A DNA stretch of 64,000 nt from an uncultured Acidobacteriota bacterium (GTDB taxonomy: Bacteria > Acidobacteriota > Thermoanaerobaculia > Multivoradales > JAHEKO01). The notes under the pieces were generated by a model. The model was not told the origin of the DNA and did no database searches. It saw nothing but the letters and a program-made list of their open reading frames with translations. Where the stretch lies: positions 286,592-350,591 of the forward strand of contig CAVQNG010000004.1 of assembly GCA_963713825.1 (NCBI GenBank), written 5' to 3'. The position numbers and the translations under genes were made by a program. Positions 27,145 through 50,875 of this stretch are shown piece by piece; the stretch's first letter is position 1, and each line of letters begins with the position of its first letter.

Positions 27145-27615
27145 ATGACCGATACAACTCCTTCCGGTACTTCGCGCCGACGGTTCCTGAACTGGTTCCT
27201 CGGCACGGCAGCGGGCGCCCTGGCCGTCGCTGTCCTCTATCCGGTTCTCCGCTTCGTCAGCCCGCCCGAGGTTCCCGAGGCGAGCACAAATCAGGTGGAG
27301 GCCGGCCCGACCAACGACCCAGAGCTCCTCGAGAAGGGATTCAAGATCGTGCGGTTCGGCGCCGACCCGGTCATCCTGGTGCGGCTTTCGGACACGGAGT
27401 TCCGCGCCTTTGCGGGTACCTGTACCCACCTCGATTGCATCGTCGAGTTCCAGAAGGACAAGCAGCGCATCTGGTGCAACTGTCACAACGGCGACTACAA
27501 CCTGCAGGGGCAAGTCGTCGCCGGCCCGCCACCCAAACCGTTGGAGCCCTTCAAGGTGGACCTGGTCGCCAAGGGCTCGGGTCAACCGAAAACCATCGTC
27601 GTCTCGCGAGCCTGA
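27145..27615 (+). CDS. Rieske [2Fe-2S] subunit 1
   Basis: Tat signal SRRRFL; CTHLDC and CNCHNG boxes; GPPPKPL. Confidence 0.93.
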   Translation: MTDTTPSGTSRRRFLNWFLGTAAGALAVAVLYPVLRFVSPPEVPEASTNQVEAGPTNDPELLEKGFKIVRFGADPVILVRLSDTEFRAFAGTCTHLDCIVEFQKDKQRIWCNCHNGDYNLQGQVVAGPPPKPLEPFKVDLVAKGSGQPKTIVVSRA

Positions 27616-27618
27616 GCC

Positions 27619-28809
27619 ATGAAAGACATCGCCCGCACCGTCCGATCCTGGTTCGACGACCGCTTGCCGGTGACCGAGGTCCAGGACTTCGCCACCCACA
27701 AGACCGTTCCGACCCACCGCTACTCGGTGTTCTACTACCTGGGTGGCATGACGATGTTCTTCTTCGTCATCCAGATCGTGACCGGCATCATGCTGATGCT
27801 CTACTACCGACCGTCGGCCGACGGTGCATTCGAGTCGGTCGAGTTCATCATGACCGTGGTGCCATTCGGCTGGCTGATCCGCTCGATCCACTCGTGGTCG
27901 GCCAATCTGATGGTCTTCTTCGCCTTCGTCCATCTGGCCACCGTCTACTTCACCAAGTCGTACCGCAACCCTCGCGAAATGACCTGGGTCACCGGCTGCC
28001 TGCTGCTCTTCCTGGCCATGGCCTTCGGTTTCTCGGGGTACCTGCTGCCCTGGAATCAGCTGGCTTTCTTTGCCACCAAAGTCGGCACCGACATCGCCGG
28101 CGCTGTGCCGTTCATCGGCGAGTGGACGCTGCGCTTTCTGCGCGGTGGTGATCGGGTCACAGGAGGAACCCTCTCCCGATTCTTCGGCTGGCACGTGGCG
28201 ATTCTGCCGGCCATTACCACCGTGCTGCTCGGGATTCACCTGCTTCTGGTCCAGGTACAGGGAATGAGCGTGCCCCCCAAGCAACAGGACGAAGCGGCCG
28301 GCAAACGCCCCATGAAGTTCTTCCCCGATTTCGCCATGCGCGATCTCTGGGGTTGGATCCTGGCACTTGGGGTTCTGGCCGCGATCGCCGCACTGTTTCC
28401 CTGGGAGCTGGGAGACAAGGCCGACCCCTTCGCACCCGCCTACAAGGACATCCGGCCCGAGTGGTACTTCATGTTCATGTTCGAGACCCTCAAGTTGGTT
28501 CCCGGAGGGGAGATCGCGGGCATCGAGTACGAAGCGATTCCGATTCTCCTGTTCAGCCTCGGCGGCCTACTCATGATGCTCGTGCCGTTCCTGGACAGAA
28601 AGGTCAATCTGACGGGACGAAGCCCCGTCTTCACCTACATCGGAATCCTCGCCCTGATCTACATTGTGGGCATGACAGCTTGGGGCTACCGATCGCTGGC
28701 GCCCCTGTTCATTGTCATCGGCACCGTCGTGCTGATGCTCCTGCTAGGCCTGGCGACGAGACATGACGCGGGACCGGCCGAGGGGCGGACGGAAGGGAGG
28801 GAGTCATGA
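27619..28809 (+). CDS. Cytochrome b (unsplit) of Rieske/cytb complex 1
   Basis: All four heme-ligand His present (SIH..VH, WH..IH); GYLLPW and PEWY motifs. Confidence 0.94.
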
Positions 28810-30533
28810 AGCGATCGACTCTTCTGACGCTGGGCTTCGGCCTGTTGTTGGTTTCGGTGACGCCCGTTCTCGCTCAGACCACGACCTCATGCGAAACCTG
28901 CCACGCCGACGGCGACCTTTTCGACGCGGCGAGCATCCAGAAAATGGAGGGCTTCAGCGGTGGGGTGCACGCTGCCTCGGGTCTCTCCTGCCACGACTGT
29001 CATGGCGGCAATCCCGATCCGGCGGTCGCCGACGACATGATGGCGGCGATGGACGAGGGCTACAGTGACAACCCCTACGTAGGAGTGCCTGAAAGAGGCG
29101 CGGTCCCGGGCTTCTGTGGTAGCTGTCACTCAGATCCCACCTACATGAAGCGTTTCAAGCCCGATGCCAGGATCGACCAGGAACGCGAGTACTGGACTTC
29201 CCGTCACGGCATAGCCCTACAGGAGGGCGACATCAACGTCGCCACCTGCATCGACTGTCACGGCGTGCACGGCATCCTCGCTGCCGGCAACCCCGAATCC
29301 ATGGTCTTCCCGACGCAAGTTGCCGAAACCTGTCGGAATTGCCATGGCGATGCGGCACGAATGACCGGCTACGAGTTGCCCAACGGACAGCCGCTGCCGA
29401 TCGACCAGTACGCTCGGTGGAGACAAAGCGTTCATGCCGAAAACCTTCTGGTCAAAGAGGATCTCTCGGCCCCAACCTGCAACGACTGCCACGGCAACCA
29501 CGGCGCAGCCCCACCGGGCCTCGACTCGGTGACCTTCGTCTGCGGTCAGTGCCATGGCCGCGAGGCCGAGATGTTTCGCGCTAGCCCGAAGCTCGTCGCT
29601 TTCGAGATGCACAACGAGTTCATGGCCGAGGCTGGCCCCGCTGGCTGCGCAGGCTGCCACGAAGATCCGGAGCCGCAAGCCTCGGTAACGATGACCAGTC
29701 TGGGCGAGTGCTCCGCTTGTCACGGCAACCACGGCATCGTGCGGCCCTCGGTGGGCATGCTCTCACCGCCTCCGCCCACTCCCTGTCAGTTCTGCCACGG
29801 CGACAACGAGAGAGTGGCGGGGCATCTCCAGGAGCCGGAGGCCATTCGTCAGAGTCACATCGAGACCCGGGATGCGCTGATGGCCGAAGCTGAGGCGCAG
29901 GGACTCGAGGGCGAAGCGCTGTTCAATTGGTTGGTCGATCAGGCGCTGACCCTGCCCAATCACACGATTGCGACCTCGGAAGAGGGTGACCTGGTTCTTC
30001 GTCTGGAGTTCGAGCGGCTGTTCAACAAGTTTCGCCTGGGCAAGACGACCTTTACCTACGAAGACCCGGTGACTGGCGAACCGACCGAAGGGCATGTGAT
30101 CCGCTGCGACACCTGCCACGCCACCGAGCCGCTCCTGGCGGACGAACCGAAGGGCATCCAGGTCTCGGGCGCGATCCAAAATCGGATGCGGGAGCTGACG
30201 TCACTGACGGCAGGCGCCGAGAGGGTCCTGCTGCGGGCCCGAAGAGGCGGCGTCGAAACACGCCACGCACTCTCCGAGATCGATCAGGCGGTCGACGCAC
30301 AGATCGGCCTCGAAGTCCTGGTGCACGGATTCTCCGTCGACGAGGACAGTGAGTTCATGGAGACGCACGCAACGGGCATGGAGCACGCGAATGCCGCTTT
30401 TGCCGCCGGTATCGAAGCCTTGGACGAGATGGCATTTCGGCGCAAGGGAATGCTGGTCTCCCTGGCCGTGATCGTGCTGGTACTGATCGGCCTGGCCTTC
30501 AAGATCCGACAGATCTCAGCCCGGGCAGACTAG
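28806..30533 (+). CDS. Membrane-anchored multiheme cytochrome c (11 CXXCH)
   Basis: Signal peptide, 11 CXXCH counted, C-terminal TM helix; ATGA overlap with cytochrome b. Confidence 0.92.
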
Positions 30534-30544
30534 CGTCTGCCTGG

Positions 30545-31006
30545 GCTTCGAGGCTTGAACCGTCCGTCGTACCTCCGGCCGGCCTTTGGGGGCTTGAGGG
30601 TTGAGGAGTCCGTCGTCCCTCCGGCCTACCTTTGAGGCAGTAGGGCCCCCTCCCTCCCACGCGTATACGCCTCTGAACCCCTACGCCCCTAAGCCCCTAT
30701 GCCTCTAGCGGTGCCAGAGGTTCGTTCGGGTGGTTCGACAGGGGGCGCCGAGTCGAGCGCGGCGCAAGGTACATCAAAGGGCACAACAGATGAGGCGCGA
30801 TGACGAGACGAGGTGGCGGCCCGACCGTCAAAGTCCGAATAGCCGCCACCGTCCCCTTGCGGACCACCCGGACGGACCTCTATGAGATATCGGTCCGTTG
30901 CTCAAGGCCAAGGGCCCAAGCCCCAAGGGTTGACCGCGACGAAGCGCGGACAATTCAACCCCAAGCCCTCAAAGACCGGCTGGAGGTACGACAGCCACCT
31001 CAACCC
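30545..31006. repeat. Composite: family C units, 8-mer array, family B element (30716-30881) and a further family C unit
   Basis: CCCCTACG CCCCTAAG CCCCTATG array, then AGAGGTTCGTTCGGGTGGTTCG...CGGACCACCCGGACGGACCTCT. Confidence 0.85.
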
Positions 31007-32464
31007 TCATTGCGGCTTCTTCGCAACCGCGATGAGGCCCAGGCTCGGCCAGGGGAGGAAGCGATCCATGCGGCGGAGGATCGGCACCATCAGATCGAAG
31101 ATCTTGAGCTGGACCCGGCTGAAGGAGCGACGGCGCAGGACCTTGCCGTTGAACCACCACGCGGGCGCGGAGATCCGGTTGAAAGGCTGGGTCTTCTCCA
31201 CGTGGAGGCCAACAATCTCGAGCTCGGCCTGCAGGCTCTCGGCCGAGTATCGGCAGCGGTGCCCAAGTGCCTCGTCGAGACTCGAGTAGAGGCCCGGACC
31301 GACTGGCACATACAGCACCAACTTGCCGCCTGGCTGCAGGGCTCTGCTCATGCGTTGCAGGGCCGCTACCGGATCCTCGACGTGCTCCAGCACATTGAGG
31401 CAGATCACCGTGTCGAACTGGTCGGCGACCGCCTCGAAGCCATCGTCCTTCTCGAGGTCCAGAAGCGCGACGTCCAGATAGGGCTTGCCGACACTCTGAT
31501 TCTCGAGGTAGGTCAGGTAGGCGGGATTGATGTCGCTGGCGAGATACCGATCCCGCGGCACCAGCAGTGAGGTCAGGTTCCCGATGCCGGCGCCGATCTC
31601 CAAGACTCTCGAGCCCAGCATGGGGCGCACGGCATCGGCCATCCAGCCGTTGAACCGCTGGGCCCTTTCCAGGGCGTGCAGAATCATGCCGCCATACTCG
31701 TCCTGTTTGTAGAGGTCGTCCACCATCCAGAAATGGCCGATGGCCCCCAGCGCCTTGAAGCCATCCTTCCAACCGATCTTCTTGCCTTCCTGGTAGGTCC
31801 TGCCGCTATAGCTGATGGGGACTTCGAAAATGCGGCAATTGCGCTTGGCGAACTTGGCGGTGAGCTCGATCTCCAAACGAAAATCGTCGGAGCGGATCGG
31901 GATCGATTGCAGGAGAGGACCGCGCACCATCTTGTAACAGGTCTCGACGTCCGTGAGGTTCAGGTCGGTGGCCCAATTGCTCATGAAGGTGATCAAGCGG
32001 TTACCCAGGGTGTGCCTGAAGTAGAGGACACGCCGACGGTCGCCGCTCAAGAACCGCGAACCGTAGACGACGTCGGCACCGTCCTCGAGGAACGGCGCCA
32101 CCAGCTTCGCCAGGTCCTGTGGGTCGTATTCGAGATCGGCATCCTGAAAGACGATCAGATCGCCCGTCGCGGCCTCGATTCCGGTGCGTACGGCGGCACC
32201 CTTGCCCTGGTTCACGTCGTGATGCAGGACCCGAACCCGTTCTGGATGCTCGACAGCGACGGCATCGACGATCGCTGCGCTGCCGTCCGTCGAGGCGTCG
32301 TCGACGACGATGACCTCCAACTCGCGGATGCCAGGGATCGCCACCGCAAGCAGTCGCCCCAGCATCTCGCGCACGAGATAGCGCTCGTTGAACACGGGAA
32401 CGATGGCGCTCAAGCGCAGCCCACCGTTTCTCTCAACCGATTTCGTGGCCGTCTCCATGCTCAT
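31007..32464 (-). CDS. Bifunctional GT2 (DPM-synthase-like) / class I SAM methyltransferase
   Basis: IVPVFNE, NQGKGAA and QDADLEYDP in the N-half; VLEIGAGIG and NVLEH in the C-half. Confidence 0.9.
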   Translation of the reverse strand: MSMETATKSVERNGGLRLSAIVPVFNERYLVREMLGRLLAVAIPGIRELEVIVVDDASTDGSAAIVDAVAVEHPERVRVLHHDVNQGKGAAVRTGIEAATGDLIVFQDADLEYDPQDLAKLVAPFLEDGADVVYGSRFLSGDRRRVLYFRHTLGNRLITFMSNWATDLNLTDVETCYKMVRGPLLQSIPIRSDDFRLEIELTAKFAKRNCRIFEVPISYSGRTYQEGKKIGWKDGFKALGAIGHFWMVDDLYKQDEYGGMILHALERAQRFNGWMADAVRPMLGSRVLEIGAGIGNLTSLLVPRDRYLASDINPAYLTYLENQSVGKPYLDVALLDLEKDDGFEAVADQFDTVICLNVLEHVEDPVAALQRMSRALQPGGKLVLYVPVGPGLYSSLDEALGHRCRYSAESLQAELEIVGLHVEKTQPFNRISAPAWWFNGKVLRRRSFSRVQLKIFDLMVPILRRMDRFLPWPSLGLIAVAKKPQ

Positions 32465-32476
32465 CCATTCCTCACA

Positions 32477-34609
32477 CTACTGCGTCGCGTTCAAATGCGC
32501 CGCGACGGCGCCGCGATCGACCCGGGCCAGAATCCAGCTGCCCCCTTTCGACTCGAGCTCGATCACAAACAGCCCCGGATGCTCCTGGACCCAGACGTGC
32601 TCGATGGTCTTCGGACCCAGGGCGGCGACATACTCGACCTCGCGGTCCAGGAGGCGCTGCAACCAGGCCTGCCGATCCGCCAGCGCTGCGACATTCTCCG
32701 GGTCCTCGTAGCTGACCAGCCCCCCATCGGTCGTGATCGGAAGATAGAGGACCTCGCGCTGCAACCGTGAGCCTAACAACGGAGAGCGAAACCAGTTATG
32801 GCCGATACCACCCCCGAAGCCAGCCGTGGCGGCGACGGTACCGGCTCCCTTTTCATCCAGCTCCTTCCAGAGAGGCCAACCACGGATGTAATTGTTGTGA
32901 TGAAAGTCGTCCAGCTCCCAGTTGGCAAACAGCCGGTAGCAATCGTAGCGGGTCACCTCACGAACCGCCGAGGCCAGGATGAGAGCGACCGTCACCATCA
33001 GCGTGGTCAGCGTGGCCGTCAACCATCGCCCGCTGGGCCGCCGATGTAGATGCCGGCGATACAGGTAACACAGCCCGAACACGAGAAGCAGGACAATCAG
33101 CCAGATTCGCAAGGTCGAGCCAGGAACCGGCGCCGGCCATTTGCGAGGCGCATAGGCGAAGAGCTCGATCACAAGCAGGGGTAGCACTACCCAGCGCACG
33201 GCGCGCTTGCCTGCGAAACCTGCGAGAGCAAACAGAGCCACGAAGCCAGGCACCCAGAATCGGCCCAGAACATTGAGCCATTGGTCCAGCAGCAGGACCC
33301 CTTTGCCGACCAGGGCAGGAGCCGCCACGGAGACCGCTGTCACCAGCGCCCAGATCAGGAAGACACGACTGCCGACGGCCTTCGAGCGGCGCCAGCCGCC
33401 GACCACACCCAGGATCAGAAAGCCGAGGCCCAACCAACCGACATTCAGAAACGGATCAACATCCCGCACGTTGATCAGCAGGGCCTTCAGGGCTTCAATC
33501 AGCGCCGGGCCCAGCTCCTTCGATGGCGCATTGGAGAGCAGGTTCTCGAGAGCCTGGTTATAAGGCAAAGACTCCAGGACACGAAACGGATAGAACGGGG
33601 AACCCCGGTGGACAACATTGAAGATCCAGTTCGGCAGCACCACCGCCGAGCCGGCGAGAAAGGCCCCGAGCAGGGCCGGCCCGCGCCGCCGCCAAGCCCA
33701 CCACAGGCTCAGCAAGGCACCGGCAGCAGCGACCGGCAGGAAAGTGAGCTTGATGGCGACGCCCAGGCCACAGCTCGCGCCAAGAACAAGAGATGACGCG
33801 GCTGAATCACCGCCCCGCTCCATCTCGACGACGCACAGAGCCGCAATCAGCGCCATGAGAAGAACGCCATTGTCCACGTAGGCCGTATTGAGCTGAGTGA
33901 GCTGGCTCGGCAAAGTGGCGATGCCCAAGGCCACCACCAGAGCACCGACAGGCTCCTGCCCGAGCGCTCGAGTGAGAGCGAATGACGCCACCAGAATCGC
34001 CAGCCAGATGCCGATGGCCACGACTGGAACCAGGACGTCACCGGTCTGCCAGATCAGGGCCCAGGCCCATAGGGAATCACCGGCCCAGGGGAAGAACTCG
34101 TAGTAGGTCCACGCATCGGGCGCCGGCTCCAGCCCCACGCCGCCCGTCTGCACCCATCGCCCGGCCCGGAACAGGTGGTAGGTGAAATCGTCCCAGCCAA
34201 AGGTCGGTGTCGCCAGAATCCGCGCCAGCCGAACCGAGAGATGGAGGGCCACGACGCCGACGGCGGCGGCGGCCAGGGGCTCCTTCCTCAAAGCGGTCCC
34301 GAGCTCTCTAAGCGCGCTCCTCGACTGCTCACCCACTCGCCGTAGCGTCGCCGAGACTCTTGTCCGGAGCCGCATCAGAACCAGCGCAGGACAGACCAAG
34401 CAGACCAGTACAACAACCGGCAATCGAAACGCGCCGAGGAGCCCCAGGATCTGAAACGTCAGGAACGCGAGCCAGAGAAATGCACAGATGGCGGCCGTGA
34501 CCTGGACCCTGAGAGGGCGGTCCTGAAGAGGCTCGGAAACAAGGACCAGGACGCCGAGCGCACAAGCCGAGAAGGTCGCAACAGCAGCCAGGAATCCAAG
34601 GAACAACAT
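32477..34609 (-). CDS. Polytopic membrane protein, probable GT-C glycosyltransferase
   Basis: Many TM helices; GWDDFTYHL luminal motif, YVD and GSPFYP; operonic with GT2. Confidence 0.65.
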   Translation of the reverse strand: MLFLGFLAAVATFSACALGVLVLVSEPLQDRPLRVQVTAAICAFLWLAFLTFQILGLLGAFRLPVVVLVCLVCPALVLMRLRTRVSATLRRVGEQSRSALRELGTALRKEPLAAAAVGVVALHLSVRLARILATPTFGWDDFTYHLFRAGRWVQTGGVGLEPAPDAWTYYEFFPWAGDSLWAWALIWQTGDVLVPVVAIGIWLAILVASFALTRALGQEPVGALVVALGIATLPSQLTQLNTAYVDNGVLLMALIAALCVVEMERGGDSAASSLVLGASCGLGVAIKLTFLPVAAAGALLSLWWAWRRRGPALLGAFLAGSAVVLPNWIFNVVHRGSPFYPFRVLESLPYNQALENLLSNAPSKELGPALIEALKALLINVRDVDPFLNVGWLGLGFLILGVVGGWRRSKAVGSRVFLIWALVTAVSVAAPALVGKGVLLLDQWLNVLGRFWVPGFVALFALAGFAGKRAVRWVVLPLLVIELFAYAPRKWPAPVPGSTLRIWLIVLLLVFGLCYLYRRHLHRRPSGRWLTATLTTLMVTVALILASAVREVTRYDCYRLFANWELDDFHHNNYIRGWPLWKELDEKGAGTVAATAGFGGGIGHNWFRSPLLGSRLQREVLYLPITTDGGLVSYEDPENVAALADRQAWLQRLLDREVEYVAALGPKTIEHVWVQEHPGLFVIELESKGGSWILARVDRGAVAAHLNATQ

Positions 34610-34880: not shown

Positions 34881-34885
34881 CCTTC

Positions 34886-38853: not shown

Positions 38854-39765
38854 TCAGTTACACCTCAATTGCACAGAGGTGACCGTGTCGTTTCCGATGC
38901 GGCTGCCGCGCAGGTCGCGCACGCCGCCCGAAATCTCGATGTAGCTACCCTGGAAATCCTCGTGCTGATACAGCCGTGCACGACACCCGGGCGAGACCCT
39001 GGCCGAGCTCGCCTGATCGTTGCCGATACTCGATCCCTGGAGAGAGCTGACGTTCTTAGAGATCAGTTCGCTGCGACCTTGATAGTCGACGTCGCGATAG
39101 AGCGTCACTCCCCGGCGGTTGTTGTCCTCCCAGCCCCAGGAGTTGTCATGTCCGTCGATCATGAACTCCGCGCGGCAGTTGTTGGACACCCAGATGCCGT
39201 TGCGGTCATAGCCCCAGGTTCGGTTGTAGTTGCAGGGGTTGCCGCTCAACTGGCGGTGCAGCTCGACATGCTGCGCCCAGCCGACGTTGCAATACTGGTA
39301 CTGCCCATTGTGAGACTGACAGGTCACCAGGCGGCCGTTCTGACCCTGGCTATAGCCCTGACTTTGGGCGCTGTCGTGCGAGTCGTCCTGATTCGCGACG
39401 ATCGCCGCAACCACCCCGGCCGCCAACAGGCCGCCGATGATGGCGCCGGCCTTGTCTCCACCCTTCTTCTGCTGAGTCGGCTGCTTGGTCGAGCTGTCGA
39501 GGTCGCGAGCTTCCGAGCCGACGGTGAACTCGGCGCTGCAGCCGTTGGAAACCCAGATGCCCTTACTGTCGTAACCCCAGGTGTCGCCGCGCCAGCAGCC
39601 GGCGTGGCTGAGCTGATGATCGAGCTCGACGCCGCCAGACGTGTCGACTGGGCAGTAGTGATGATCATGGCCGTAGGATTCACAGGTCACTTTGAATTGG
39701 GCCCGGGCTCCAGCTGTCGGCAGAAGCAGCAAGGCCGCGGTCAGCATCGTAAGTGCGCTTCTCAT
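38854..39765 (-). CDS. Secreted protein with two DUF3011 repeats and a beta/gamma-crystallin domain
   Basis: Signal peptide from MRSALT (39765); two TCES/TCQS..C..QLS..C..TWGYD..GIWVSNxC.AEF units; LYRDVDYQG..NDQASSARV..LYQHEDFQG. Confidence 0.85.
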   Translation of the reverse strand: MRSALTMLTAALLLLPTAGARAQFKVTCESYGHDHHYCPVDTSGGVELDHQLSHAGCWRGDTWGYDSKGIWVSNGCSAEFTVGSEARDLDSSTKQPTQQKKGGDKAGAIIGGLLAAGVVAAIVANQDDSHDSAQSQGYSQGQNGRLVTCQSHNGQYQYCNVGWAQHVELHRQLSGNPCNYNRTWGYDRNGIWVSNNCRAEFMIDGHDNSWGWEDNNRRGVTLYRDVDYQGRSELISKNVSSLQGSSIGNDQASSARVSPGCRARLYQHEDFQGSYIEISGGVRDLRGSRIGNDTVTSVQLRCN

Positions 39766-40181
39766 CGGTCTTCCTCCTCGTGACCAGCCTCGACCAGCTC
39801 CTGCTTGGTGATGTGGCCGTCGGCGTCGCTGTCGACCGACTCGAATAGCACGCCTATGTGTGCCATGAACTCCCGGTCGGACAGGATCTCGTCGCGGTCG
39901 CTGTCGGCGAGCTCGTGATGCGGCGCGACCAGCACCTCGGAGAACTCCTCGGCCTGCAGGACGCCGTCGCCATTCGCATCGAACTCGAAGAAGACCTTCG
40001 TCATACGATTGCGAAACTCCTCCATACTGAGCTTGCCGTCGGCATTTCGATCGGCCGACTCGAAGTCCGAAACCGGCACTGCTTCCCCCGCGGGGGCTGT
40101 GGCGACTTCGACCTCCTCGGCCATCAAATGCGAGCCGATTGCGGTGCTGGCGAAAACGAGGACCCACAACGACGTTCTCAC
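39762..40181 (-). CDS. Secreted EF-hand protein
   Basis: Four EF loops: DRNADGKLSMEE, DANGDGVLQAEE, DSDRDEILSDRE, DSDADGHITKQE. Confidence 0.88.
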   Translation of the reverse strand: MRTSLWVLVFASTAIGSHLMAEEVEVATAPAGEAVPVSDFESADRNADGKLSMEEFRNRMTKVFFEFDANGDGVLQAEEFSEVLVAPHHELADSDRDEILSDREFMAHIGVLFESVDSDADGHITKQELVEAGHEEEDR

Positions 40182-40364: not shown

Positions 40365-40771
40365 ACCCCTACGCCCCTATGCCCCTCTCGGTGCCGAGAG
40401 GTTCGTTCGGGTGGTTCGACAGGGGGCGCCGAGTCGAGCGCGGCGCAAGGTCCTCGATAGGGCACCGGAGTTGGGGCGCGACGACGAGACGAGGTGGCGG
40501 CCGCTTCAAAACCTCGCACCTGTCGTTGGACGCTCCCGGCCAGCAGTGCCAGCCCACCCTCCAAAAAGCACCATTTAGCACCCAAAATGGACAGCGCAGC
40601 GGCCAAAGTGACAAACGCTCCCGAACCACCAACGATCCAAGAGCCCAGGACCCAGGTCCCAAGCCCTCATAGATCGGCCGGAGGTACGACGGGCGCCTCA
40701 ACCCCCAAGCCCCCAAAGGTCAGCCGAAGGTACGACGGCTGACTCAACCCTCAATGGCAGTCCGAGCAGAC
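40365..40771. repeat. 8-mer array, truncated family B (40397-40502) and right copy of the long direct repeat (40498-40771)
   Basis: B element ends at GCGGCC, fused to GCTTCAAAACC; two family C units precede the cytochrome stop. Confidence 0.85.
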
Positions 40772-42445
40772 CTCCAGGTCTGGCGAGGACTGCAAGGCTG
40801 GAGGCTCGCCGTGGCAATCGGTGCAACCGATCTCCAGGTCGCCAACGTGGAAGGCGTGCTCGAAGTCACCCAGGTCCGTGCTGAAGGCCCTCTCCATTAC
40901 GCCGCCGTGACAGGCCGTGCAGTCGCTTGCGGGATCGCTGTGATGGCAGCTGTTGCAGGACGAGGACTGGATCTTCAGCGAACCCATTCCCTGGCTGTCT
41001 CGCTCTTCGTGCGTGGAGTGGCATTGCTGGCAATCGAGTCCCTGTCCCACGACATGCGGCTTGTGGGCGAAGCCTCTTCCGAAGATGCTCACCTGCAGGG
41101 TTTCGACGCCGGCATGGCACTGCAGGCAATCCGAAGCGTAGGGAGCCGTCGGCCAGGGGGTCCCCAGCTTGGAATAGCCCTCTTCTTCGCGTGCCTGGTT
41201 GATCTGTGCGTGAGCCGTTTCGAGCACAGCTACGCTGTAAGGCACGTTGTGAATTCCCTTGCCGCGCTCCACCAGCTCCAGGTTGGCCGTGGCGTCTACG
41301 AAGGCAGCCGGAGGTTCGGAACCGAGAAGTCTTGCTGTGCTGTCGAACTGCTGGCGCACACCCGAGGTTCTTTCGGCCACAGTGGTCTGCCAGTTCTTGT
41401 AGACCTGGCGATACTTCGGCCCGTGACAGCTCATACACGAGACCTCGCCAGCCAGCGCGGTCTCCCCATCGCCGTGATTCACGTGGCAGCCTTCGCAACG
41501 CACACCGGCCAGATACATGACGTCGGGCCGCGGGTCGACATCCTTGCCCCCGAGGCCTGCGTACAAGTCCCGCTGGGGCGAGTGGCCGCCGCCATGGCAA
41601 GAGGCGCATTCGCTCTTGGCGGCTTCGAGGTGACGCGGGGTCACGTGCTCGATCTCCAGGTGGCAGTGAGTGCACTCCACCTTGTGCTCGGTGACGTGAG
41701 TCCGATGCAGCAGGTCTCCTGAGTCGTACTCGGCCAAGCGCTTCTCATCGTTGTGACACGTCAGGCAGCGCTCTCGAGGTACGCCTCCCGCGTCTGGACT
41801 CGGAGGGGTATGGCAGGTAAGACAATCCATTCCGAAGCGCGACACGTCGCCATGATCGAAGTCCAGGCCGCCCGCAGTGAGCACTCGATCCGGCACCCGG
41901 TGGCACAACGTACACCGCGCTGTACCCTCACCGGCCGGTTGACCTTTGAAGTGGCACAGCGTGCAGGTCGTCCCGGTGACCGTCATATGGGAGCCCTGGA
42001 CGATCTGGGAGTGGCAGGAGGTGCACTTGAGTTTCTTTCCCCGCCGCAGCTCGCTCAGGTGGGGACCGTGGTCGAAGAGCACCTCTCCGAAGATCTCCGT
42101 CCCGGCCAGCAACCGTCGATCATGGCACTCGAGACATGCGATGTCGTCCACTTCCGCCCAGGGATTGGTGCCATAAGTACCAGTGAAGTACCGTGCCACC
42201 ATGGCCATCGCTTCGTACTTCTTGCGCAATTCCTGGGTGATTCCCGGCGAGATGTGACAGTCGACGCAGTTGATGCCGGCGTGGGTCGACTCGCTCCAGG
42301 ACTGGTAGTAAGGCGACATGACGTGGCAGCTCCCACAGAAGCCTGGCGTGGAGCTCATGTGCATCGCCCCATAGGTGGCGATGATGCCGACACCCACCAC
42401 CAGAGCGATGGCGTAGCCGGCCACGGTGAAACGACCGAGCTTCAT
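40751..42445 (-). CDS. 18-heme cytochrome c with an N-terminal NrfH/NapC-like domain
   Basis: Start MKLGRF (ATGA overlap), one TM helix, [22 protein letters not shown]; 18 CXXCH counted. Confidence 0.9.
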   Translation of the reverse strand: MKLGRFTVAGYAIALVVGVGIIATYGAMHMSSTPGFCGSCHVMSPYYQSWSESTHAGINCVDCHISPGITQELRKKYEAMAMVARYFTGTYGTNPWAEVDDIACLECHDRRLLAGTEIFGEVLFDHGPHLSELRRGKKLKCTSCHSQIVQGSHMTVTGTTCTLCHFKGQPAGEGTARCTLCHRVPDRVLTAGGLDFDHGDVSRFGMDCLTCHTPPSPDAGGVPRERCLTCHNDEKRLAEYDSGDLLHRTHVTEHKVECTHCHLEIEHVTPRHLEAAKSECASCHGGGHSPQRDLYAGLGGKDVDPRPDVMYLAGVRCEGCHVNHGDGETALAGEVSCMSCHGPKYRQVYKNWQTTVAERTSGVRQQFDSTARLLGSEPPAAFVDATANLELVERGKGIHNVPYSVAVLETAHAQINQAREEEGYSKLGTPWPTAPYASDCLQCHAGVETLQVSIFGRGFAHKPHVVGQGLDCQQCHSTHEERDSQGMGSLKIQSSSCNSCHHSDPASDCTACHGGVMERAFSTDLGDFEHAFHVGDLEIGCTDCHGEPPALQSSPDLEVCSDCH

Positions 42446-43656
42446 GGAGTACCCGCCTCTTTCTGGAGCTTCTTCTTCACAATGACGAGAATGGCGATCG
42501 TCAAGATCAAATAGAACCAAAAGAGCGCCAGCCCGACGTGGGCTACCGTCTTGTCCAGCTTGGAATAGAGCTCATGCTCGACTTCCTCGGCAATCGACTG
42601 GGCCCGCCGGGTCAACTGCTCCACAGGCTCCCGGGAGACGGTATGCACCATGGGCAGGGCCTCGGTGACATAGGTCTTGGCCTCCTCCACCCGGCTCAGT
42701 GCATCTTCGACCTCCAGGGCTGCCCGGTCGGCCTCGGCAACCTGCTCCTCTGCTTCGGCAACAGACTCGTTGGCGGACTCCACCAACGCATGGATCTTGT
42801 GACCCAGAACCGCCTGGTCGCTGTCTTCGCCGTGACACTCGGCGCAAAGCGACTGCACCCTCTCGATGCCGAACTGGCGAATGGCATGGTTGGAATGACA
42901 AGACGCACACTCGGGAATGCCAGCCTCTATCATGCCGGCGTAGTGAGGCCCGGCCAAGAAAGCTCGACGAGTCTGTTCGTGACAGGCACCGCAGATCTTG
43001 TCCACATCGCCGACTCCCGGAGGTGTGGCGCCGTGGACGCCGTGACAGCTCGTGCAGTTGGGAGCGGCCGATGAGCCTTCCTCGATCAGCAGCCGGCCAT
43101 GAATGCTGGACCTGTACTCGGTTACGACGTTGGGGTCGAGACCGAACTCGGACATCAAGGCCTCATCATCGTGACACTGAGCGCAGGTAGCCGGTATGTT
43201 CCTCGTGTTCGAAGAGCTCGAGGGGTCCCGCGGCCGGAGGATGTCGTGCACCCCGTGACAGTCGGTGCAAACCGCGGCCCGGGTCTCTCCCTCAGCGAGC
43301 GCTTTGCCGTGCTGTGAAGTCAGGTAGATCGCGTATTGATCGACGGGCAAGTTGTAGGGCCGCATCCGTTCGAGGTCCGAGTGACAATCGGCGCACATCT
43401 CGGGAATCTCGCGCCTGTTGGCCAGGCTTCGGAACTCTCCTGCATGCGCCCCCGCCACGTCCCGCATGGCCGGATTTCCGCCATGACAGTCACTGCAGCT
43501 CACACCCTCCACCGCATGAATGCTCTCCGCAAAGCTGACGCGCGTCTCCGGGTGGCAAGTGCCGCAGGTCTCCTGAGCCGACAAGGGTCCCGACGCCAGC
43601 GCCAGCAACCCACACATCAGCCCGGCGAACAGTAGTGCTTTTCTTGCCTGTCTCAT
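42442..43656 (-). CDS. Membrane-anchored 9-heme cytochrome c (paralog of 28806-30533)
   Basis: Start MRQARK (ATGA overlap), signal peptide, 9 CXXCH, C-terminal TM helix; shared LPxDQY..S.H and HGAxPPG segments. Confidence 0.9.
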   Translation of the reverse strand: MRQARKALLFAGLMCGLLALASGPLSAQETCGTCHPETRVSFAESIHAVEGVSCSDCHGGNPAMRDVAGAHAGEFRSLANRREIPEMCADCHSDLERMRPYNLPVDQYAIYLTSQHGKALAEGETRAAVCTDCHGVHDILRPRDPSSSSNTRNIPATCAQCHDDEALMSEFGLDPNVVTEYRSSIHGRLLIEEGSSAAPNCTSCHGVHGATPPGVGDVDKICGACHEQTRRAFLAGPHYAGMIEAGIPECASCHSNHAIRQFGIERVQSLCAECHGEDSDQAVLGHKIHALVESANESVAEAEEQVAEADRAALEVEDALSRVEEAKTYVTEALPMVHTVSREPVEQLTRRAQSIAEEVEHELYSKLDKTVAHVGLALFWFYLILTIAILVIVKKKLQKEAGTP

Positions 43657-44777
43657 GCGACCCTCGCACCGTAGAACGTCAGAGAAATCCAGACTGCGAG
43701 CAGCGCCGCCACGATCAGCAGCGTCACCACGCGGCTTCGCGCCCCGTCTCGGAATCCAGGGATGAAAGGCAACAGCACGAAGGCCGTGAACGCCAGAAAG
43801 AGGATGGTGCCGCCAACCCAGATCGGCAGGAACCCCGAGGTGAGCTCGAGAAATCCAAACGGCGCCAGCAGATACCAGGGTGGCCCGACACCCGGCACCG
43901 TCAGATAGGGATCGGCCGGATCGCCCAGTGGCACGGGCACCAGCACCGCAAGGCTGACGAGAATCCCCAGTAGGACCGTAAACAGAATGGCCTGGTTCAG
44001 CAGGTGGGTCCGAATCACCGGCCCACCACTTTTCGGTGCAGCCTGCGTTCCCGCCTCGGTCTGTCCGAGTCTGCGCACCCCCGAGAAATGGAGATAAATG
44101 AGGGTAATGGCGGCGAACGGCAGCAGCGCCACGTGGAGCAGATAGAAGCGAATCAGCGTCAGCTCGGTGATCACCGTCTCTCCACCCCCGAGAACAAAGA
44201 GCATCGCCGAGCCATAGATGGGAATGCTGCCCACGAGCTCGAGAGCCCTGACGGAAGACCAGTAGGCTGTGCCGGTCATGGGTAGTGCCTTGCCCGTCAA
44301 GTCGGAGTGGAAGCAGACCAGCAGCAGGAGCACTCCGAAGACCCACATGAGCTCTCGCGGCTTGCGATAGACGCCCCGCAACAGGAAGCGCACCACCCTG
44401 ACAATCAGGACGGCGATGAGAAGCTGCGCCCCCCAGAAGTGAATCTGGTGCACGAACCAGCCGAAATTCACATCCCGCAGAATGGTGGCGATGCTGGCCC
44501 TGGCAGTCTGTGGCGTCGGCAAGTAGTAAAAGGCCAGCAGTGAGCCGGTGACAATCTCGATCAGGAGCAGTACGACGGCCAGAAGCCCCAACACCCTCGG
44601 CCACTGGTCGTAGGACGGCATCGGTTGTTGCTTGGCTTCGGCAATCGCGGCACGGATGTTCTTGCGGCTGTCGAGCTCTGCGTGGAAGACGCCGTAGCTC
44701 GTCAGCAAAGAGAAGATCTCTGTCAGGTTCAAGCGGCGAGAGAACCAATCCAGGACGCCAGACTTTTCCTCTTTCAT
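43653..44777 (-). CDS. Divergent cytochrome b of Rieske/cytb complex 2
   Basis: Cytochrome b fold (YYLPT, GWFV..IHFW, YRKPRELMW, RFYLLH..LH), but the second helix-B His is Arg and PEWY is PPWY. Confidence 0.9.
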   Translation of the reverse strand: MKEEKSGVLDWFSRRLNLTEIFSLLTSYGVFHAELDSRKNIRAAIAEAKQQPMPSYDQWPRVLGLLAVVLLLIEIVTGSLLAFYYLPTPQTARASIATILRDVNFGWFVHQIHFWGAQLLIAVLIVRVVRFLLRGVYRKPRELMWVFGVLLLLVCFHSDLTGKALPMTGTAYWSSVRALELVGSIPIYGSAMLFVLGGGETVITELTLIRFYLLHVALLPFAAITLIYLHFSGVRRLGQTEAGTQAAPKSGGPVIRTHLLNQAILFTVLLGILVSLAVLVPVPLGDPADPYLTVPGVGPPWYLLAPFGFLELTSGFLPIWVGGTILFLAFTAFVLLPFIPGFRDGARSRVVTLLIVAALLAVWISLTFYGARVA

Positions 44778-44792
44778 TGTCCAGGTCCTCCT

Positions 44793-45260
44793 CTAGGAGA
44801 CGTGAAGATGGATCTCGCCGAGACGGGTCTCGACACGGTAGCGGCGCAAAGATTGCGGCGGTGGGCCTTTGAGGACATTGCCATTCAGGTCGAACGCCCC
44901 TTCATGACACGGGCAGTCGAGCGACCGCTGCTTGGGGTCCCAGTCGAGCACACAGTGCATGTGGGTGCAGACGCCGGCCAGGGCCACGAGATTCTCCTCG
45001 TCGGGCCGAACGACCCAGATCGGCTCCCGGCCCCTTTGGACCAGCCTCGCCTGTCCGACGGGCAGGTCCTCCAGAGGCCCCACCTTGATGACGCGCTCTG
45101 CGATGCTGCTCTTCGAGTGCGGGGGCTTGAGGAAAGAAGTGATGACCCAGAGGAACCCCACGCCCCACAGGGAGAGAAAGCCCCCGGTCAGCCACTGCAG
45201 AAACTTGCGCCTTCCCGGCGTCAAATCCACAAGGTCATTGTTGGTCGATTCCTCAGCCAT
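44793..45260 (-). CDS. Rieske [2Fe-2S] subunit 2
   Basis: Tat signal GRRKFL; CTHMHC and CPCHEG boxes; GPPP. Confidence 0.93.
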   Translation of the reverse strand: MAEESTNNDLVDLTPGRRKFLQWLTGGFLSLWGVGFLWVITSFLKPPHSKSSIAERVIKVGPLEDLPVGQARLVQRGREPIWVVRPDEENLVALAGVCTHMHCVLDWDPKQRSLDCPCHEGAFDLNGNVLKGPPPQSLRRYRVETRLGEIHLHVS

Positions 45261-45368: not shown

Positions 45369-45404
45369 GGCAGCCGGCAGGCCTGCCGGCTGACTCACAA
45401 GCTC

Positions 45405-45462
45405 AGGCCCCAGGACCCAAGCCCCAGAGACCAGCCGAAGGTACGCCCGGCTGCCTCAACCC
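45405..45462. repeat. Family C unit abutting a stop codon
   Basis: CAGGCCCCAGGACCCAAGCCCCAGAGACCAGCCGAAGGTACGCCCGGCTGCCTCAACCC. Confidence 0.7.
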
Positions 45463-45463
45463 T

Positions 45464-47524: not shown

Positions 47525-47603
47525 GTCGATCTATCCCTCGCCAAACAAAATGCGGAGCGAGCCACCGGCCCGCTCCGCGAGGATTCACCCGTTCCAGTGC
47601 TCG

Positions 47604-48722
47604 CTAGGCGGCGTCTTGACCCGCCGCACGGCTTTCGAACACCTCCTTCACCATGTAGTACACGGTGTATAGGCCCGCCACCAGCAGCACGGCGAACAGA
47701 ACGAAGTTGCCCCACTGGGGTGCCGTCTCCAGACGGAACTGCGAGGTCACCGGCTCGAGATAGATCGCCCGGATCTGATGCCGGGTGATGGACATCACGG
47801 CGATCGTCACGATCATGCCGATCAGGGTGCCGTTGACGGTCGAGAACTTCTCCACCGGGTTCGACACCTTGGCCAACATCACCAGGAGTCCGAGAGCAAA
47901 GGCGATGCCGACCGTGAAGGGCAACATCGTCGCCATTCCACCCCGCATGAAGCCCAGCAGCACCGGCCGCGGCAGCACCATGACCAGCAGGAACCCGTCG
48001 GCGATCTGAAGGAGCGTCGTCCACAGCGCCCACTTCCAGCCGTAGCGCGCGATCTTCGTGTTGAGCTCGACCTCGATGCCCTTGCCAGCCTGTCGTGCCG
48101 CCCACCACGCCACCACAACGCCGCTGAAGCCGAGGCCCGCCAAGACGAAGTGGAACAGGCGCGGCCAGAACGCGGCATCGCCCAGAATCGCCATCGGGTT
48201 ATCGGCCAGGGCACCCCACTGGTCGGGCTGCGAGTGAATGAGGTTCACTGCCACATGCACCATCGCGATCAAAAAGAACATGATGGCGGAGATCCACAGC
48301 CAGGCGGTGCCACCCGAACCTTTCGTCGGCGTCCCCTTGAACTTGTAGAGATAGGCCGCGTAGTAGCCGACCATCAGGAACACCAGCGACATCAACCACG
48401 TCCACGCAATCATGATCGTGGCGGTGTAGAAGTACTGTTGATAGAGAACTTGCACGAACAACAACGGCGCGATGCCCGTCGTAATCGTCAGTGAGATGCC
48501 GAAAGTGTTGATGCCCATCAGCCGCATCGCCATCACGGCCCTGAAGTCGTCCGCCTTGCCACCCGAGAACAATTGACCCAGCGCCGCCAGGATGGTGCCG
48601 CCCAGGGTCAGGTTCATGAACAGCATGTGCAGGAAGAAGGTGAACACCAGGAGGACGTGGAACAGCCACGTCGGTCCTGGAATTGGAAAAGCGTCCAATG
48701 CAGGAATCAGCTCGTTACCCAT
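47604..48722 (-). CDS. CydA-paralogous membrane subunit (partner of the bd-like oxidase)
   Basis: About 9 TM helices, FLHMLFMN..GG, GIAPLLF and RLFHF motifs; translationally coupled to the upstream gene. Confidence 0.7.
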   Translation of the reverse strand: MGNELIPALDAFPIPGPTWLFHVLLVFTFFLHMLFMNLTLGGTILAALGQLFSGGKADDFRAVMAMRLMGINTFGISLTITTGIAPLLFVQVLYQQYFYTATIMIAWTWLMSLVFLMVGYYAAYLYKFKGTPTKGSGGTAWLWISAIMFFLIAMVHVAVNLIHSQPDQWGALADNPMAILGDAAFWPRLFHFVLAGLGFSGVVVAWWAARQAGKGIEVELNTKIARYGWKWALWTTLLQIADGFLLVMVLPRPVLLGFMRGGMATMLPFTVGIAFALGLLVMLAKVSNPVEKFSTVNGTLIGMIVTIAVMSITRHQIRAIYLEPVTSQFRLETAPQWGNFVLFAVLLVAGLYTVYYMVKEVFESRAAGQDAA

Positions 48723-50083
48723 CAGACACCTCCTTTGGCCGCCGCTTCACCTTCTGGCGTCGTCAACGAGGCGATGAAGTCCACCAGCGCCTCCATCTCT
48801 TCTTCCGTGCCCACGAAGGGTGGCATGAACGGGTAGTTCAGGTCCCCCATGGCCACGGCCTCACCCGGTTCCAGAGCGGTGAACATCTCGCCCTGGTCGT
48901 ACAGCGCATACAGAATGCTGTACGTCATGTCCGGATCCTCGGGAGCCAACTCCCGGATGGAGAGATAGCCGTCGATCGTGTGACAGCTACGGCACTGGGC
49001 GTCGAAGACCTGGCGCCCCATCTCCACCGAGTCGGTAGCCGGCACCCTGGCCGCCCACCGCGCCTTGGAGAGCATCCCTTTCTCGTTCAGCTCCCCGACC
49101 TCCTTCACGAGAACCCCGTTCGAGAACATGTAGTCGTGGATGATGAACGGCTTGCGAGTCCCCTCCCGAAGACGCTCGTAGGTGCCGAAGAACGAGAAGG
49201 CCGCGATCGTGATCAACAACAGGGGAATGACCTTGGCCATCTTCGGCATGAGAAGCAGGAAGATGATGGACAGCACCAGGAATACGGCAACCGACCACAT
49301 CACCTCGTGGCGGGTCATCGCCAACCCGTCGAGCAGCGCTCCCTTGCCGAGGAAGAGGCTCTGCACGGTGTCGGGAAGGGCCGCTTCCCACCACCGATAG
49401 CCGGCGTAGGAGATCAGCGCTCCCACCACGGCCCACTTGCCCAGGTACCGGTTCAACTTCAGCCGGGCCCCGTCCGCCGCCTTCCTCGCCGGCCACACCA
49501 TGAAGGCCACCGCCATCAAAATGACGATGCCGGTGCGCAGCACCAGGCTCGGGAAATAGGTCGGGTTGAAGAAGCCATCCCAAAAGGCGCCGGTCTGGAG
49601 CCACTTTCCAGGAGTCAGCATAAAGGTCACGATGCCGTTGATGATCACCAACGAGAGATACGCCGCGATGAAGTAGATCCAGATCACCATCACGTGAGCC
49701 CGCTTCGAGATCTTGTTCCACGTCGCGAAGTAGACCAACGCGGCCACGATCTCTACGATGAAGAACACCCACTCGATCGCCCATCCCCAAACGAAGTTGC
49801 GGATCAATGCGGAGATCGCCGCCGGCGAAATAAGGCCCGCCACCACCCAGATCCCGACGCCGGAAATGGCACCGAACACCGTCGAGAACAGAATGAGTAC
49901 CAGCGACGAGCGCTTGGCCAGGTTCCGCATCTCCGGGTCATTGCGCTTGACGGACAGGGTCTCGGTGACTGCGATCACCAGACCGCCACCGATAGCGAAG
50001 TGCGACACGATGACGTGAGTGATGGCGACAATGCCCATCAGGACACCGCCGCCCATGGCAATATCCCAGATCGGATAATCCAT
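48722..50083 (-). CDS. Cytochrome bd subunit I-like protein with C-terminal heme c
   Basis: THV..SHFAIGGG, WAIEWVFFIVE, GFFNPT and REGTRKPFII motifs; CRSCH followed by a MPPF axial-Met region. Confidence 0.82.
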   Translation of the reverse strand: MDYPIWDIAMGGGVLMGIVAITHVIVSHFAIGGGLVIAVTETLSVKRNDPEMRNLAKRSSLVLILFSTVFGAISGVGIWVVAGLISPAAISALIRNFVWGWAIEWVFFIVEIVAALVYFATWNKISKRAHVMVIWIYFIAAYLSLVIINGIVTFMLTPGKWLQTGAFWDGFFNPTYFPSLVLRTGIVILMAVAFMVWPARKAADGARLKLNRYLGKWAVVGALISYAGYRWWEAALPDTVQSLFLGKGALLDGLAMTRHEVMWSVAVFLVLSIIFLLLMPKMAKVIPLLLITIAAFSFFGTYERLREGTRKPFIIHDYMFSNGVLVKEVGELNEKGMLSKARWAARVPATDSVEMGRQVFDAQCRSCHTIDGYLSIRELAPEDPDMTYSILYALYDQGEMFTALEPGEAVAMGDLNYPFMPPFVGTEEEMEALVDFIASLTTPEGEAAAKGGV

Positions 50084-50206
50084 CCTGTCTCCTTTCTTCT
50101 CAGGTCCAACGAGGTTGCCAACAACGGTCGGCGAGCTCGCCTCGGGTTGGCGCGTACCCTAGCGCTCTGCCGCATCTAGACTATCGTTTTCGCGCATCCG
50201 GGCCCA

Positions 50207-50222
50207 CCACCTGAATGGGTAG
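50207..50222. promoter_or_regulatory. Candidate regulator site CCACCT-GAAT-GGGTAG
   Basis: Centre of the divergent promoter between the bd-like operon and c554. Confidence 0.6.
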
Positions 50223-50308
50223 GTTCGGGCGTCGTCAATTCGATATGATGGGAATGCCGCGCCGCGGAACTCTACCGGGCAATCGTCCTGGACAAAGGAG
50301 ATGGACTC

Positions 50309-50875
50309 ATGAAGAAGGCTGTTGTCCTGATGCTGCTGGTCGTCCCCGTTCTCTTGCTGGCCACCGCCGCCAACGCCGAGCACGCCTACATCGGCACCAA
50401 AAACTGCAAGAAGTGCCATATCAAACAGTGGAAGTCCTGGTCCGAGACCAAGATGGCCAACGCCTTCGAGACCTTGAAGCCGGGTGTCGCCGCCGAGCGC
50501 AAGGCCGAGCTCGGCCTCGACGCCGACAAGGACTACACCACCGATGCGGAGTGTGTCCGCTGCCATGTGACGGGCTACGGTAAAGAGGGCGGTTTCAGCA
50601 GCATCGAAGACACGCCCGATCTGATTGGCGTCGGGTGCGAGATGTGCCATGGAGCCGGAGGGGGCTACACCCAAGATGGCTACATGACATTGAAGAACAA
50701 GGAGTACAAACGAACAGACCTCATCGGTGTCGGTCTTGTCCATCCCGTCGACGAGGCGGTCTGCACCCAGTGCCACAACGAACAGGTGCCGATACCTGAC
50801 TACACGTTCGACTACGAGGCGATGAAGGCCCAGGGCCTGCACGAGAATGCGCCTTTGAAGTACAACCATGATTGA
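50309..50875 (+). CDS. Tetraheme cytochrome c554-family protein
   Basis: Signal peptide; YIG..CKKCH, CVRCHVTG, GVGCEMCHG and CTQCH; AGGAG RBS. Confidence 0.9.
   Translation: MKKAVVLMLLVVPVLLLATAANAEHAYIGTKNCKKCHIKQWKSWSETKMANAFETLKPGVAAERKAELGLDADKDYTTDAECVRCHVTGYGKEGGFSSIEDTPDLIGVGCEMCHGAGGGYTQDGYMTLKNKEYKRTDLIGVGLVHPVDEAVCTQCHNEQVPIPDYTFDYEAMKAQGLHENAPLKYNHD

Follow-up and report, generated by a model that had tools for sequence, protein, structure and literature searches.

The purpose of the dimer in cytochrome bc1 complexes, and of the bridge between its two hemes bL, has been addressed by engineering asymmetric dimers and knock-outs of heme bH. According to the available part of that work, loss of a histidine ligand of heme bH blocks electron transfer from bL to bH, and a monomer without bH cannot feed the quinone reduction site (Qi); symmetrically inactivated dimers fail to support growth, whereas cross-inactivated ones work via the bL-bL bridge (PMC4152375). 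Here, we analysed a stretch of 64,000 nucleotides, referred to as the window, from an uncultured Acidobacteriota bacterium of the class Thermoanaerobaculia (assembly GCA_963713825.1, contig CAVQNG010000004.1, positions 286,592 to 350,591). Positions 27145–50875 of the window form a redox gene island with two Rieske/cytochrome b gene sets, and in one of the two cytochromes b, designated B2, the equivalent of this histidine is replaced by arginine.

The island consists of four modules and a tetraheme cytochrome, c554: module A (R1-B1-C11) and module B (R2-B2-C9-N18) each combine a Rieske protein and a cytochrome b with multiheme cytochromes, module C comprises the multiheme/cytochrome b fusions L21 and L11, and module D is the cytochrome bd-like pair ORa/ORb. 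Such combinations are not without precedent. Multiheme cytochromes were proposed before as acceptors of Rieske proteins (Dibrova 2013, as cited in the available part of PMC5317091), and a cytochrome c donor of the OR-C enzymes has been inferred from sequence in a preprint whose available part reports no OR-C assay (bioRxiv 10.1101/2021.01.16.426971). For marine Thermoanaerobaculia, multiheme/beta-barrel clusters and flexible respiration were reported, and Rieske proteins are unmentioned in the available part of that text (bioRxiv 10.1101/2020.10.01.322446). An earlier note on the same DNA had described the island as holding twin Rieske/cytochrome b complexes which, together with other quinol oxidising modules, converge on an atypical oxidase or an external acceptor.

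B2 lacks a heme bH ligand and the canonical Qo residues

The two cytochromes b of the island are not equivalent. B1 contains all four heme-ligating histidines, the PEWY motif and the tyrosine of the quinol oxidation (Qo) site, and together with an adjacent Rieske protein carrying both cluster motifs and a c-type acceptor it has the complete set of features expected of a Q-cycle complex. Neither protein is of the b6f type, as both are long and the column of the heme ci cysteine (CxGG) is occupied by tyrosine in B1 and valine in B2.

Residues of B2 were counted in the best 120 of 269 homologs, and columns were equated with the histidines, tyrosine and isoleucine of b6 by alignment with solved b6 chains. 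The histidine pair that ligates heme bL (His113/His215) is kept in all 120 sequences. In contrast, Arg127 of B2 stands where helix B otherwise provides a ligand of heme bH; 119 homologs have arginine here and one has glutamine, and bis-histidine ligation of heme bH is thereby lost. The Qo pocket is altered at three positions which are otherwise the PEWY glutamate, the helix-C tyrosine and a hydrophobic residue of helix cd1: PEWY reads PPWY, with proline in 117 homologs, alanine in three and glutamate in none; Lys163 occupies the tyrosine column, where 111 homologs have arginine, seven lysine and none tyrosine; and Arg177, invariant in 120 of 120, replaces the isoleucine of b6 and the valine of B1. 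The AlphaFold model of B2 is a confident cytochrome b fold (predicted local distance difference test score 88.6; Foldseek template modelling scores 0.66–0.75), and the Rieske partner is present. The ratio of nonsynonymous to synonymous substitution rates (dN/dS) relative to the same-genus genome G033 was 0.052 for B2 and 0.077 for B1; the low value for B2 indicates purifying selection and hence a gene which is not decaying.

In a FastTree phylogeny of 230 sequences, B2 belongs to a clade of 48 rows with support 1.0, two of which are the window's own protein. Arginine is found at position 127 in 46 of these rows, a gap in one and histidine in one. Eight of the 48 rows have Asn, Gln, Ser, Thr or Gly in place of the second bH ligand, His230, while the bL pair is histidine in every row covering it, as expected if heme bH is gone. 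These data suggest that B2 probably binds heme bL only and that B2 alone probably cannot run a standard proton-pumping Q-cycle. The description of the two complexes as twins in the earlier note is not supported, since B2 lacks one bH ligand and the Qo glutamate and tyrosine where B1 is canonical.

Module B is a fixed and old four-gene unit

In a phylum sample of 401 genomes, 17 carry B2. Within the genome collection, B2 has its closest relatives in metagenome-assembled genomes labelled Thermoanaerobaculia or Acidobacteriota. The unit R2-B2-C9-N18 is complete and has the same gene order in 15 of 16 loci from the family and in 13 of 14 loci from elsewhere in the phylum; in the two exceptions, the contig ends. 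Two genomes encode C9 and N18 as a single, fused 27-heme protein (G138 and G050; loci L141 and L142), downstream of a B2-lineage cytochrome b with four histidines and no PEWY and in one run with R1-B1. A related unit, N17-Rieske-B-C9, with a B1-type cytochrome b was present in seven of 20 fetched loci.

A sister lineage, for which the sources give the name Gemmatimonadota, was represented by 80 metagenome loci (L161–L240), many of them on short contigs; of these, 78 contain a Rieske gene, 69 a C9-like and 51 an N18-like gene. Its cytochrome b has four histidines in 80 of 80 loci, the Qo tyrosine in 79 and PEWY in none. The motif is replaced by S[TS]W-type sequences and cd1 position 177 is mostly glutamate; the genes follow the order Rieske, cytochrome b, 9-heme, 21-heme NapC-like protein, often with CbcL-like genes downstream. 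B2 and the sister lineage have in common an N-terminal insert of 23 residues which is absent from B1. The shared unit and insert therefore indicate that Rieske, cytochrome b, 9-heme cytochrome and NapC/multiheme protein constitute a unit of old standing whose Qo motif is non-standard; as the aligned residues indicate, the B2 branch has additionally lost a bH ligand.

B1, B2 and the sister lineage form three well-supported groups, the B1 and B2 clades with 100/100 support each. We dropped the idea that B2 arose by recent duplication of B1 on account of these separate clades, although forcing B1 and B2 together was rejected only just below the 0.05 level (approximately unbiased test, p-AU 0.042 on 31 chosen rows). 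An order of events with the Qo change first and the bH loss later, as B2-lineage proteins with four histidines might suggest, is not put forward here: the trees are unrooted, and two of these proteins form very long branches while one is nested in the arginine clade.

The cytochrome bd-like pair as a probable partner of module A

The ORa/ORb pair fits the described OR-C1a/b family, as a CydA homolog with a C-terminal heme c motif is followed by an adjacent second CydA paralog. His23, Glu104 and Glu111 of ORa are invariant in nine aligned sequences; they may be the counterparts of His19 and Glu99/Glu107 of E. coli CydA, although sequence searches gave no match to a CydA chain of the PDB. In ORb, His32 and His191 are invariant in 55 aligned sequences, and His23 of ORa aligns with His32 of ORb in a weak match (probability 4%). 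ORb had no Pfam or NCBIfam match, yet the top ten Foldseek matches of its model were all cytochrome bd chains, in agreement with its earlier assignment as a second CydA-like subunit.

Six genomes of the phylum have an ORa-like match adjoining a B1-like match. In all four loci fetched from other Acidobacteriota (L250–L253; G200, G389, G404 and G370), the genes are arranged as ORb-Rieske-cytochrome b-ORa; the cytochrome b is canonical, and no other cytochrome c lies between ORb and ORa. These operons are candidates for a bc-bd supercomplex with the OR-C1a heme c in the role of cytochrome c1. The c554 gene neighbours ORa/b in members of the family, whereas in distant genomes it neighbours R1-B1. 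Since the OR pair flanks Rieske/cytochrome b genes and c554 accompanies either partner, the route from module A via c554 to OR-C1 is the best supported and, as far as gene context tells, the most likely one, with O2 as a plausible acceptor for module A. Of the earlier proposal, the several quinol-to-periplasm routes side by side and the bd-like pair as a plausible O2 sink are supported, the latter by the OR-C1a/b match and the four of four loci, and the twinned complexes are not.

The Rieske proteins belong to different classes: a G-Y signature, as in R1, marks the class of about 200 mV and a G-F signature, as in R2, that of about 150 mV (Kao and Hunte; available part of PMC4122944). We infer from these signatures that both proteins would be suited to menaquinol, and the genome carries futalosine-route genes for menaquinone. 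Charge complementarity between the Rieske tips and the arginines of B2 was also considered and found no support, because an acidic residue of R1 is present without B2 and not constant where B2 is present.

Electron routes and competing explanations

The explanation which we tentatively prefer, with confidence falling a little short of even, combines a canonical Q-cycle branch leading to OR-C1 with a B2 branch that operates on the periplasmic side only and without a Q-cycle. All four modules would take electrons from menaquinol and transfer them to the periplasm, with differing energy yields. Module A would work as a conventional Rieske/cytochrome b complex, with a Q-cycle and a multiheme acceptor, passing electrons via c554 to module D as an OR-C1-type bd oxygen reductase, and module C would represent two CbcL-like quinol oxidases. 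Module B would form a self-contained complex in which B2, with heme bL only and a remodelled Qo pocket, would neither transfer electrons across the membrane nor support a Q-cycle, and would serve R2, C9 and N18 as a scaffold and a redox relay. The site of menaquinol turnover might be the NrfH-like domain of N18 or the altered B2 pocket, and the module might provide a lower-yield route for low-potential acceptors. A periplasm-only role of B2 is suggested because the bL pair is constant, the bH ligand and Qo residues are replaced and the four-gene unit is fixed. A stand-alone module B is suggested because the sister lineage has the four-gene unit mostly without a B1-type gene, because C9-N18 fusions occur and because module A occurs alone in genus g6.

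Several observations weigh against this explanation. A B1-type gene is present in 16 of the 17 B2-bearing phylum genomes, as compared to 103 of 401 overall, and in 17 of 18 genomes of the family; moreover, modules A and B lie in one co-directional run in seven genomes. This co-occurrence and the shared runs fit at least as well with a natural B1/B2 heterodimer, in which B1 would contribute the only working Qo and Qi sites, and B2 a second heme bL and a dock for the second Rieske protein and the C9/N18 wire, so that low-potential electrons could also enter or leave by way of the bL-bL bridge. In agreement with such a dimer, the one heme kept in B2 is bL, located at the dimer axis, and engineered asymmetric bc1 dimers do function via this bridge, as the available part of PMC4152375 describes. 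We regard a heterodimer as the main competing explanation, but as rather unlikely. The module of the sister lineage mostly lacks a B1-type gene nearby (five of 80 loci and two of the 18 loci of at least 15 kb, with flanks of at most 8 kb, many of which end early), the 23-residue insert sets B2 and the sister lineage apart from B1, in the window 13 kb separate modules A and B, which lie on opposite strands, and in one genome (G185; 98% complete, 310 contigs) no cytochrome b other than B2 was found. In addition, related genomes are not independent, and a shared lifestyle could account for the co-occurrence.

Further points against the preferred explanation concern the active sites. PPWY by itself does not abolish a Qo site, as bc1 complexes of Acidithiobacillus have it too (available part of PMC4122944). 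Three f18-family genomes encode B2-lineage proteins which have all four histidines, and still Arg177 and no PEWY. The match of N18 to NrfH (2j7a) covers 78 residues (E 1e-6) and does not cleanly place the Lys/Asp pair; aligned N18 orthologs contain an invariant KK-[YF]-EA segment followed by methionine, the register of which against NrfH is ambiguous. Finally, the other bH ligand, His230, is kept in 116 of the 120 close homologs and the first Gly/Ser of helix A, position 64, in 119; an initial assumption that the bH-packing glycine was lost from B2 was dropped for the latter reason. The retention of both residues means that B2 could hold a five-coordinate heme bH, with His230 and a distal arginine forming either a high-spin site for the binding or conversion of a small ligand or a relay of shifted potential across the membrane. 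The near constancy of Arg130 (109 of 120) and Arg235 (120 of 120) is compatible with such a site, and the fact that the substitution is nearly always one residue, arginine, implies selection for it. On the other hand, His230 is replaced in the eight rows of the wider clade mentioned above, the helix-C glycine beside bH is glycine in only 51 of 120 homologs, and the arginine could merely fill an empty pocket. We therefore consider a five-coordinate heme bH improbable.

The island is a composite of separately inherited modules

Comparison of relatives revealed that the island is a composite of separately inherited modules. B1-like matches occur in 103 of the 401 phylum genomes as opposed to 17 for B2, and R1-B1-C11 stands alone in many of them; C11 is fused to B1 in two genomes (G100 and G125). 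The whole arrangement is kept in the same-genus genomes G033 and G034, whereas outside the genus the modules rearrange. In genus g6 (G015 and G016), the same island includes the regulators, L21, L11, ORa/b and c554 and lacks R2-B2-C9-N18. Five genomes have ORa next to the B2 operon (G000, the genome of the window, and G032, G033, G034 and G042); in the phylum sample, ORa was found in six of the 17 B2-bearing genomes, as compared to 89 of 401 overall, and the remaining 11 gave no OR-C1a match.

The earlier note had treated the locus as one integrated island, a view at odds with the g6 island and with these 11 genomes. Its picture of two equivalent Q-cycle complexes and two CbcL-like oxidases, co-regulated and converging on the bd-like oxidase or an outside acceptor, is in our judgement very unlikely. 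The arrangement kept in G033 and G034 agrees with it, as does a block of sensor kinase, LuxR-type regulator, USP, DUF302 and CBS genes (window 22849–26989) which travels with the island in several genera. However, the residue losses of B2 contradict equivalent complexes, gene orientation implies at least five transcription units, module B is missing in G015 and G016, and 11 of the 17 B2-bearing genomes gave no OR-C1a match. The same block was found beside R1-B1 in G033, G034, G007, G009, G015 and G016, in G009 without DUF302 and USP; the kinase/LuxR genes are likely regulators of the island. Frameshifts in B1/C11 of L121 (G016), N18 of L013 (G034) and ORb of L115 (G009) are probably assembly errors.

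Gene organisation and sequence features

The features of the island are listed in Table 1. Seven of its open reading frames (ORFs) contain 11, 21, 18, 9, 11, 1 and 4 CXXCH motifs, which confirms the earlier count of 75, and no CXXCK motif was found in these seven heme c ORFs, again as noted before. A six-frame count gave 79 CXXCH motifs in the island and three in the other 40,269 bases of the window. Pfam matches agreed with the earlier domain assignments: they identified both Rieske proteins, both long cytochromes b and both multiheme/cytochrome b561 (FdnI-like) fusions, as well as a NapC/NirT domain at the N-terminus of the 18-heme ORF, CydA with cytochrome c on ORa, and c554. The plus-strand set was correct with respect to its genes but does not form one operon, as two genes on the opposite strand lie between R1-B1-C11 and L21.

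Table 1. Features of the redox gene island, with positions counted in the window.
Feature	Position	Strand	Description	Basis or remark
R1	27145..27615	+	Rieske [2Fe-2S] protein, twin-arginine-type anchor, G-Y signature	Pfam, motif
B1	27619..28809	+	canonical long cytochrome b	Pfam, alignment
C11	28806..30533	+	11-heme cytochrome c, C-terminal anchor, in cytochrome c1 position	
Glycosyltransferase/methyltransferase	31007..32464	-	non-respiratory	
Membrane protein	32477..34609	-	710 amino acids, no family match, non-respiratory	
L21	35082..38054	+	21-heme/FdnI-type cytochrome b fusion, CbcL-like architecture	Pfam
Lectin-like and EF-hand genes	38854..40181	-	non-respiratory	absent from corresponding place in G033, G034
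N18	40751..42445	-	18-heme protein, NapC/NrfH-like N-terminal domain, first motif CXXCH-x-M	
C9	42442..43656	-	9-heme cytochrome c, C-terminal anchor	
B2	43653..44777	-	non-canonical cytochrome b	
R2	44793..45260	-	Rieske protein, G-F signature (~150 mV class)	
L11	45464..47365	-	11-heme/FdnI-type cytochrome b fusion, CbcL-like	start codon uncertain
Terminator-like hairpin	47552..47578	-	12 bp stem, between OR pair and L11	consensus match only
ORb	47604..48722	-	CydA-fold partner subunit, OR-C1b-like	
ORa	48722..50083	-	CydA-like with C-terminal monoheme cytochrome c, OR-C1a-like	
c554	50309..50875	+	c554-type tetraheme cytochrome, divergent from ORa	candidate shuttle

The twelve redox genes account for 15,816 of the 23,731 bases (67%) of the island, and the rest contains the glycosyltransferase, the 710-residue membrane protein, the lectin-like and EF-hand genes and interspersed repeats. 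The G+C content is about 0.62 and flat along the stretch, and there is therefore no sign of recent foreign origin. The true starts of C9 and N18 are probably 43656 and 42445, respectively, each with an ATG overlapping the upstream stop codon. A terminator scan returned 16 sites with 10.9 expected, which makes the hairpin between ORb and L11 weak; in the promoter scan, sigma-70 promoters were not enriched and no noteworthy FNR-like site was seen.

Intergenic repeats are located at module borders (30550–31027, 38170–38834, 40361–40771, 45401–45437, 50872–50928 and 51960–52369). The repeat at 38196–38339 has 88 genome-wide BLAST matches of at least 50 nucleotides, that at 38603–38775 has eight. 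Further upstream, window positions 2057–5777 carry a Lys/Ala-rich histone-like ORF and a B12-dependent ribonucleotide reductase. Four metatranscriptome runs contained 6–9% of the sampled words, and one run covered all 30 bins of 27100–47099, including the non-respiratory genes, so that DNA carry-over or relatives may be the source and the contigs cannot rank genes.

The island in the context of the genome

The genome is 96% complete and contains 240 CXXCH motifs in 27 ORFs with three or more. In view of this number and of similar clusters in relatives, the heme total of the island is less special than it appears: it results from the clustering of modules that are all of known kinds. The earlier statement that the acceptor is unexplained goes too far, since two A-type heme-copper oxidases, five molybdoenzyme-family matches and a GSU2203/GSU2204-family decaheme/partner pair (G000:C5:505146–507842, above cut-off) are encoded elsewhere in the genome. 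The pair is a candidate for the kind of porin-cytochrome conduit which the earlier note had suggested seeking there; maturation genes, likewise suggested, are present as members of the CcmF/CcsA family. A profile search gave only a sub-threshold genome match to MtrB (PF11854), and none above cut-off to dsrA or nosZ.

Near the GSU2203/GSU2204-family pair, a region (G000:C5:518604–532442) encodes 16-, 26- and 6-heme proteins and large exported proteins, and with the pair it makes up a candidate outer-membrane conduit. A second respiratory cluster (G000:C25:72795–107174) encodes the two A-type oxidase subunits I, genes resembling alternative complex III (ACIII), a third, split Rieske/cytochrome b and a cytochrome c with eight motifs; the ACIII-like genes, the third Rieske/cytochrome b and the 16- and 26-heme proteins were identified from ORF sequence. 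Four further octaheme proteins are encoded at C3:103390, C3:1694264, C3:1777642 and C5:179439 of G000, at least one of which is HAO/HDH-like.

Comparison with known systems

N18 resembles NrfH, NapC and CymA in its N-terminal anchor, the NapC/NirT domain, the CXXCH-x-M first motif and the match to NrfH, and differs from them by its 18 hemes and by being paired with a Rieske/cytochrome b instead of NrfA or NapAB. Geobacter CbcL has nine hemes, as compared to 11 in L11 and 21 in L21. Both island proteins have the CbcL architecture, a fusion of multiheme cytochrome c and FdnI-type cytochrome b, and are likened to CbcL by this domain architecture (available part of bioRxiv 10.1101/2022.08.31.506072). 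The OR-C1a/OR-C1b enzymes (Murali, Gennis, Hemp), as far as the available text describes them, are likewise adjacent CydA paralogs of about eight helices each, the 'a' subunit with a C-terminal CXXCH and two channel glutamates, for which Glu104 and Glu111 are the candidates in ORa, and the 'b' subunit without these; up to eight hemes c are reported for them, whereas ORa has one, and the likeness is one of gene features. The ORb-Rieske-cytochrome b-ORa operons may point to a concrete electron donor for OR-C bd oxidases.

Compared with bc1 and b6f complexes, B1 is alike in its four histidines, PEWY and Qo tyrosine. B2 is alike in fold and differs in its pattern His-Arg-His-His and the absence of the PEWY glutamate. 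No row with this pattern was present in parts 1–2 of the three parts of Fig. S1 of PMC5600118. Our literature search, the scope of which lay outside Dibrova 2013, ten Brink 2013, the journal version of Murali 2021 and the OR-C supplements, and in which some sources were available in part, returned no description of a His-to-Arg cytochrome b or of an R2-B2-C9-N18 unit.

The nearest precedent for B2, judged from the available part of the source, is subfamily K of cyanobacterial cytochromes b (Dibrova 2017, PMC5600118), in which the same helix-2 histidine is replaced. The proteins of subfamily K are short, carry Gln, Glu, Asn, Asp or Phe at this position and lack the glycine that accommodates bH, whereas B2 is long, carries arginine, keeps Gly/Ser and is encoded with a Rieske protein and two multiheme cytochromes. 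It is conceivable, though we would put it forward with clear reservation, that B2 represents an undescribed class of one-heme cytochromes b, the complex of which acts as an electron splitter or entry port on the periplasmic side, either in a natural asymmetric dimer with B1 by way of the bL-bL bridge or stand-alone, with high- and low-potential electrons directed into two different multiheme wires. Such a lineage would extend the known chemistry of the Rieske/cytochrome b enzyme family. As a widespread natural lineage with a fixed loss of a bH ligand under purifying selection, it would provide a natural test of the dimer and bL-bL bridge question which has been approached in bc1 complexes by engineering.

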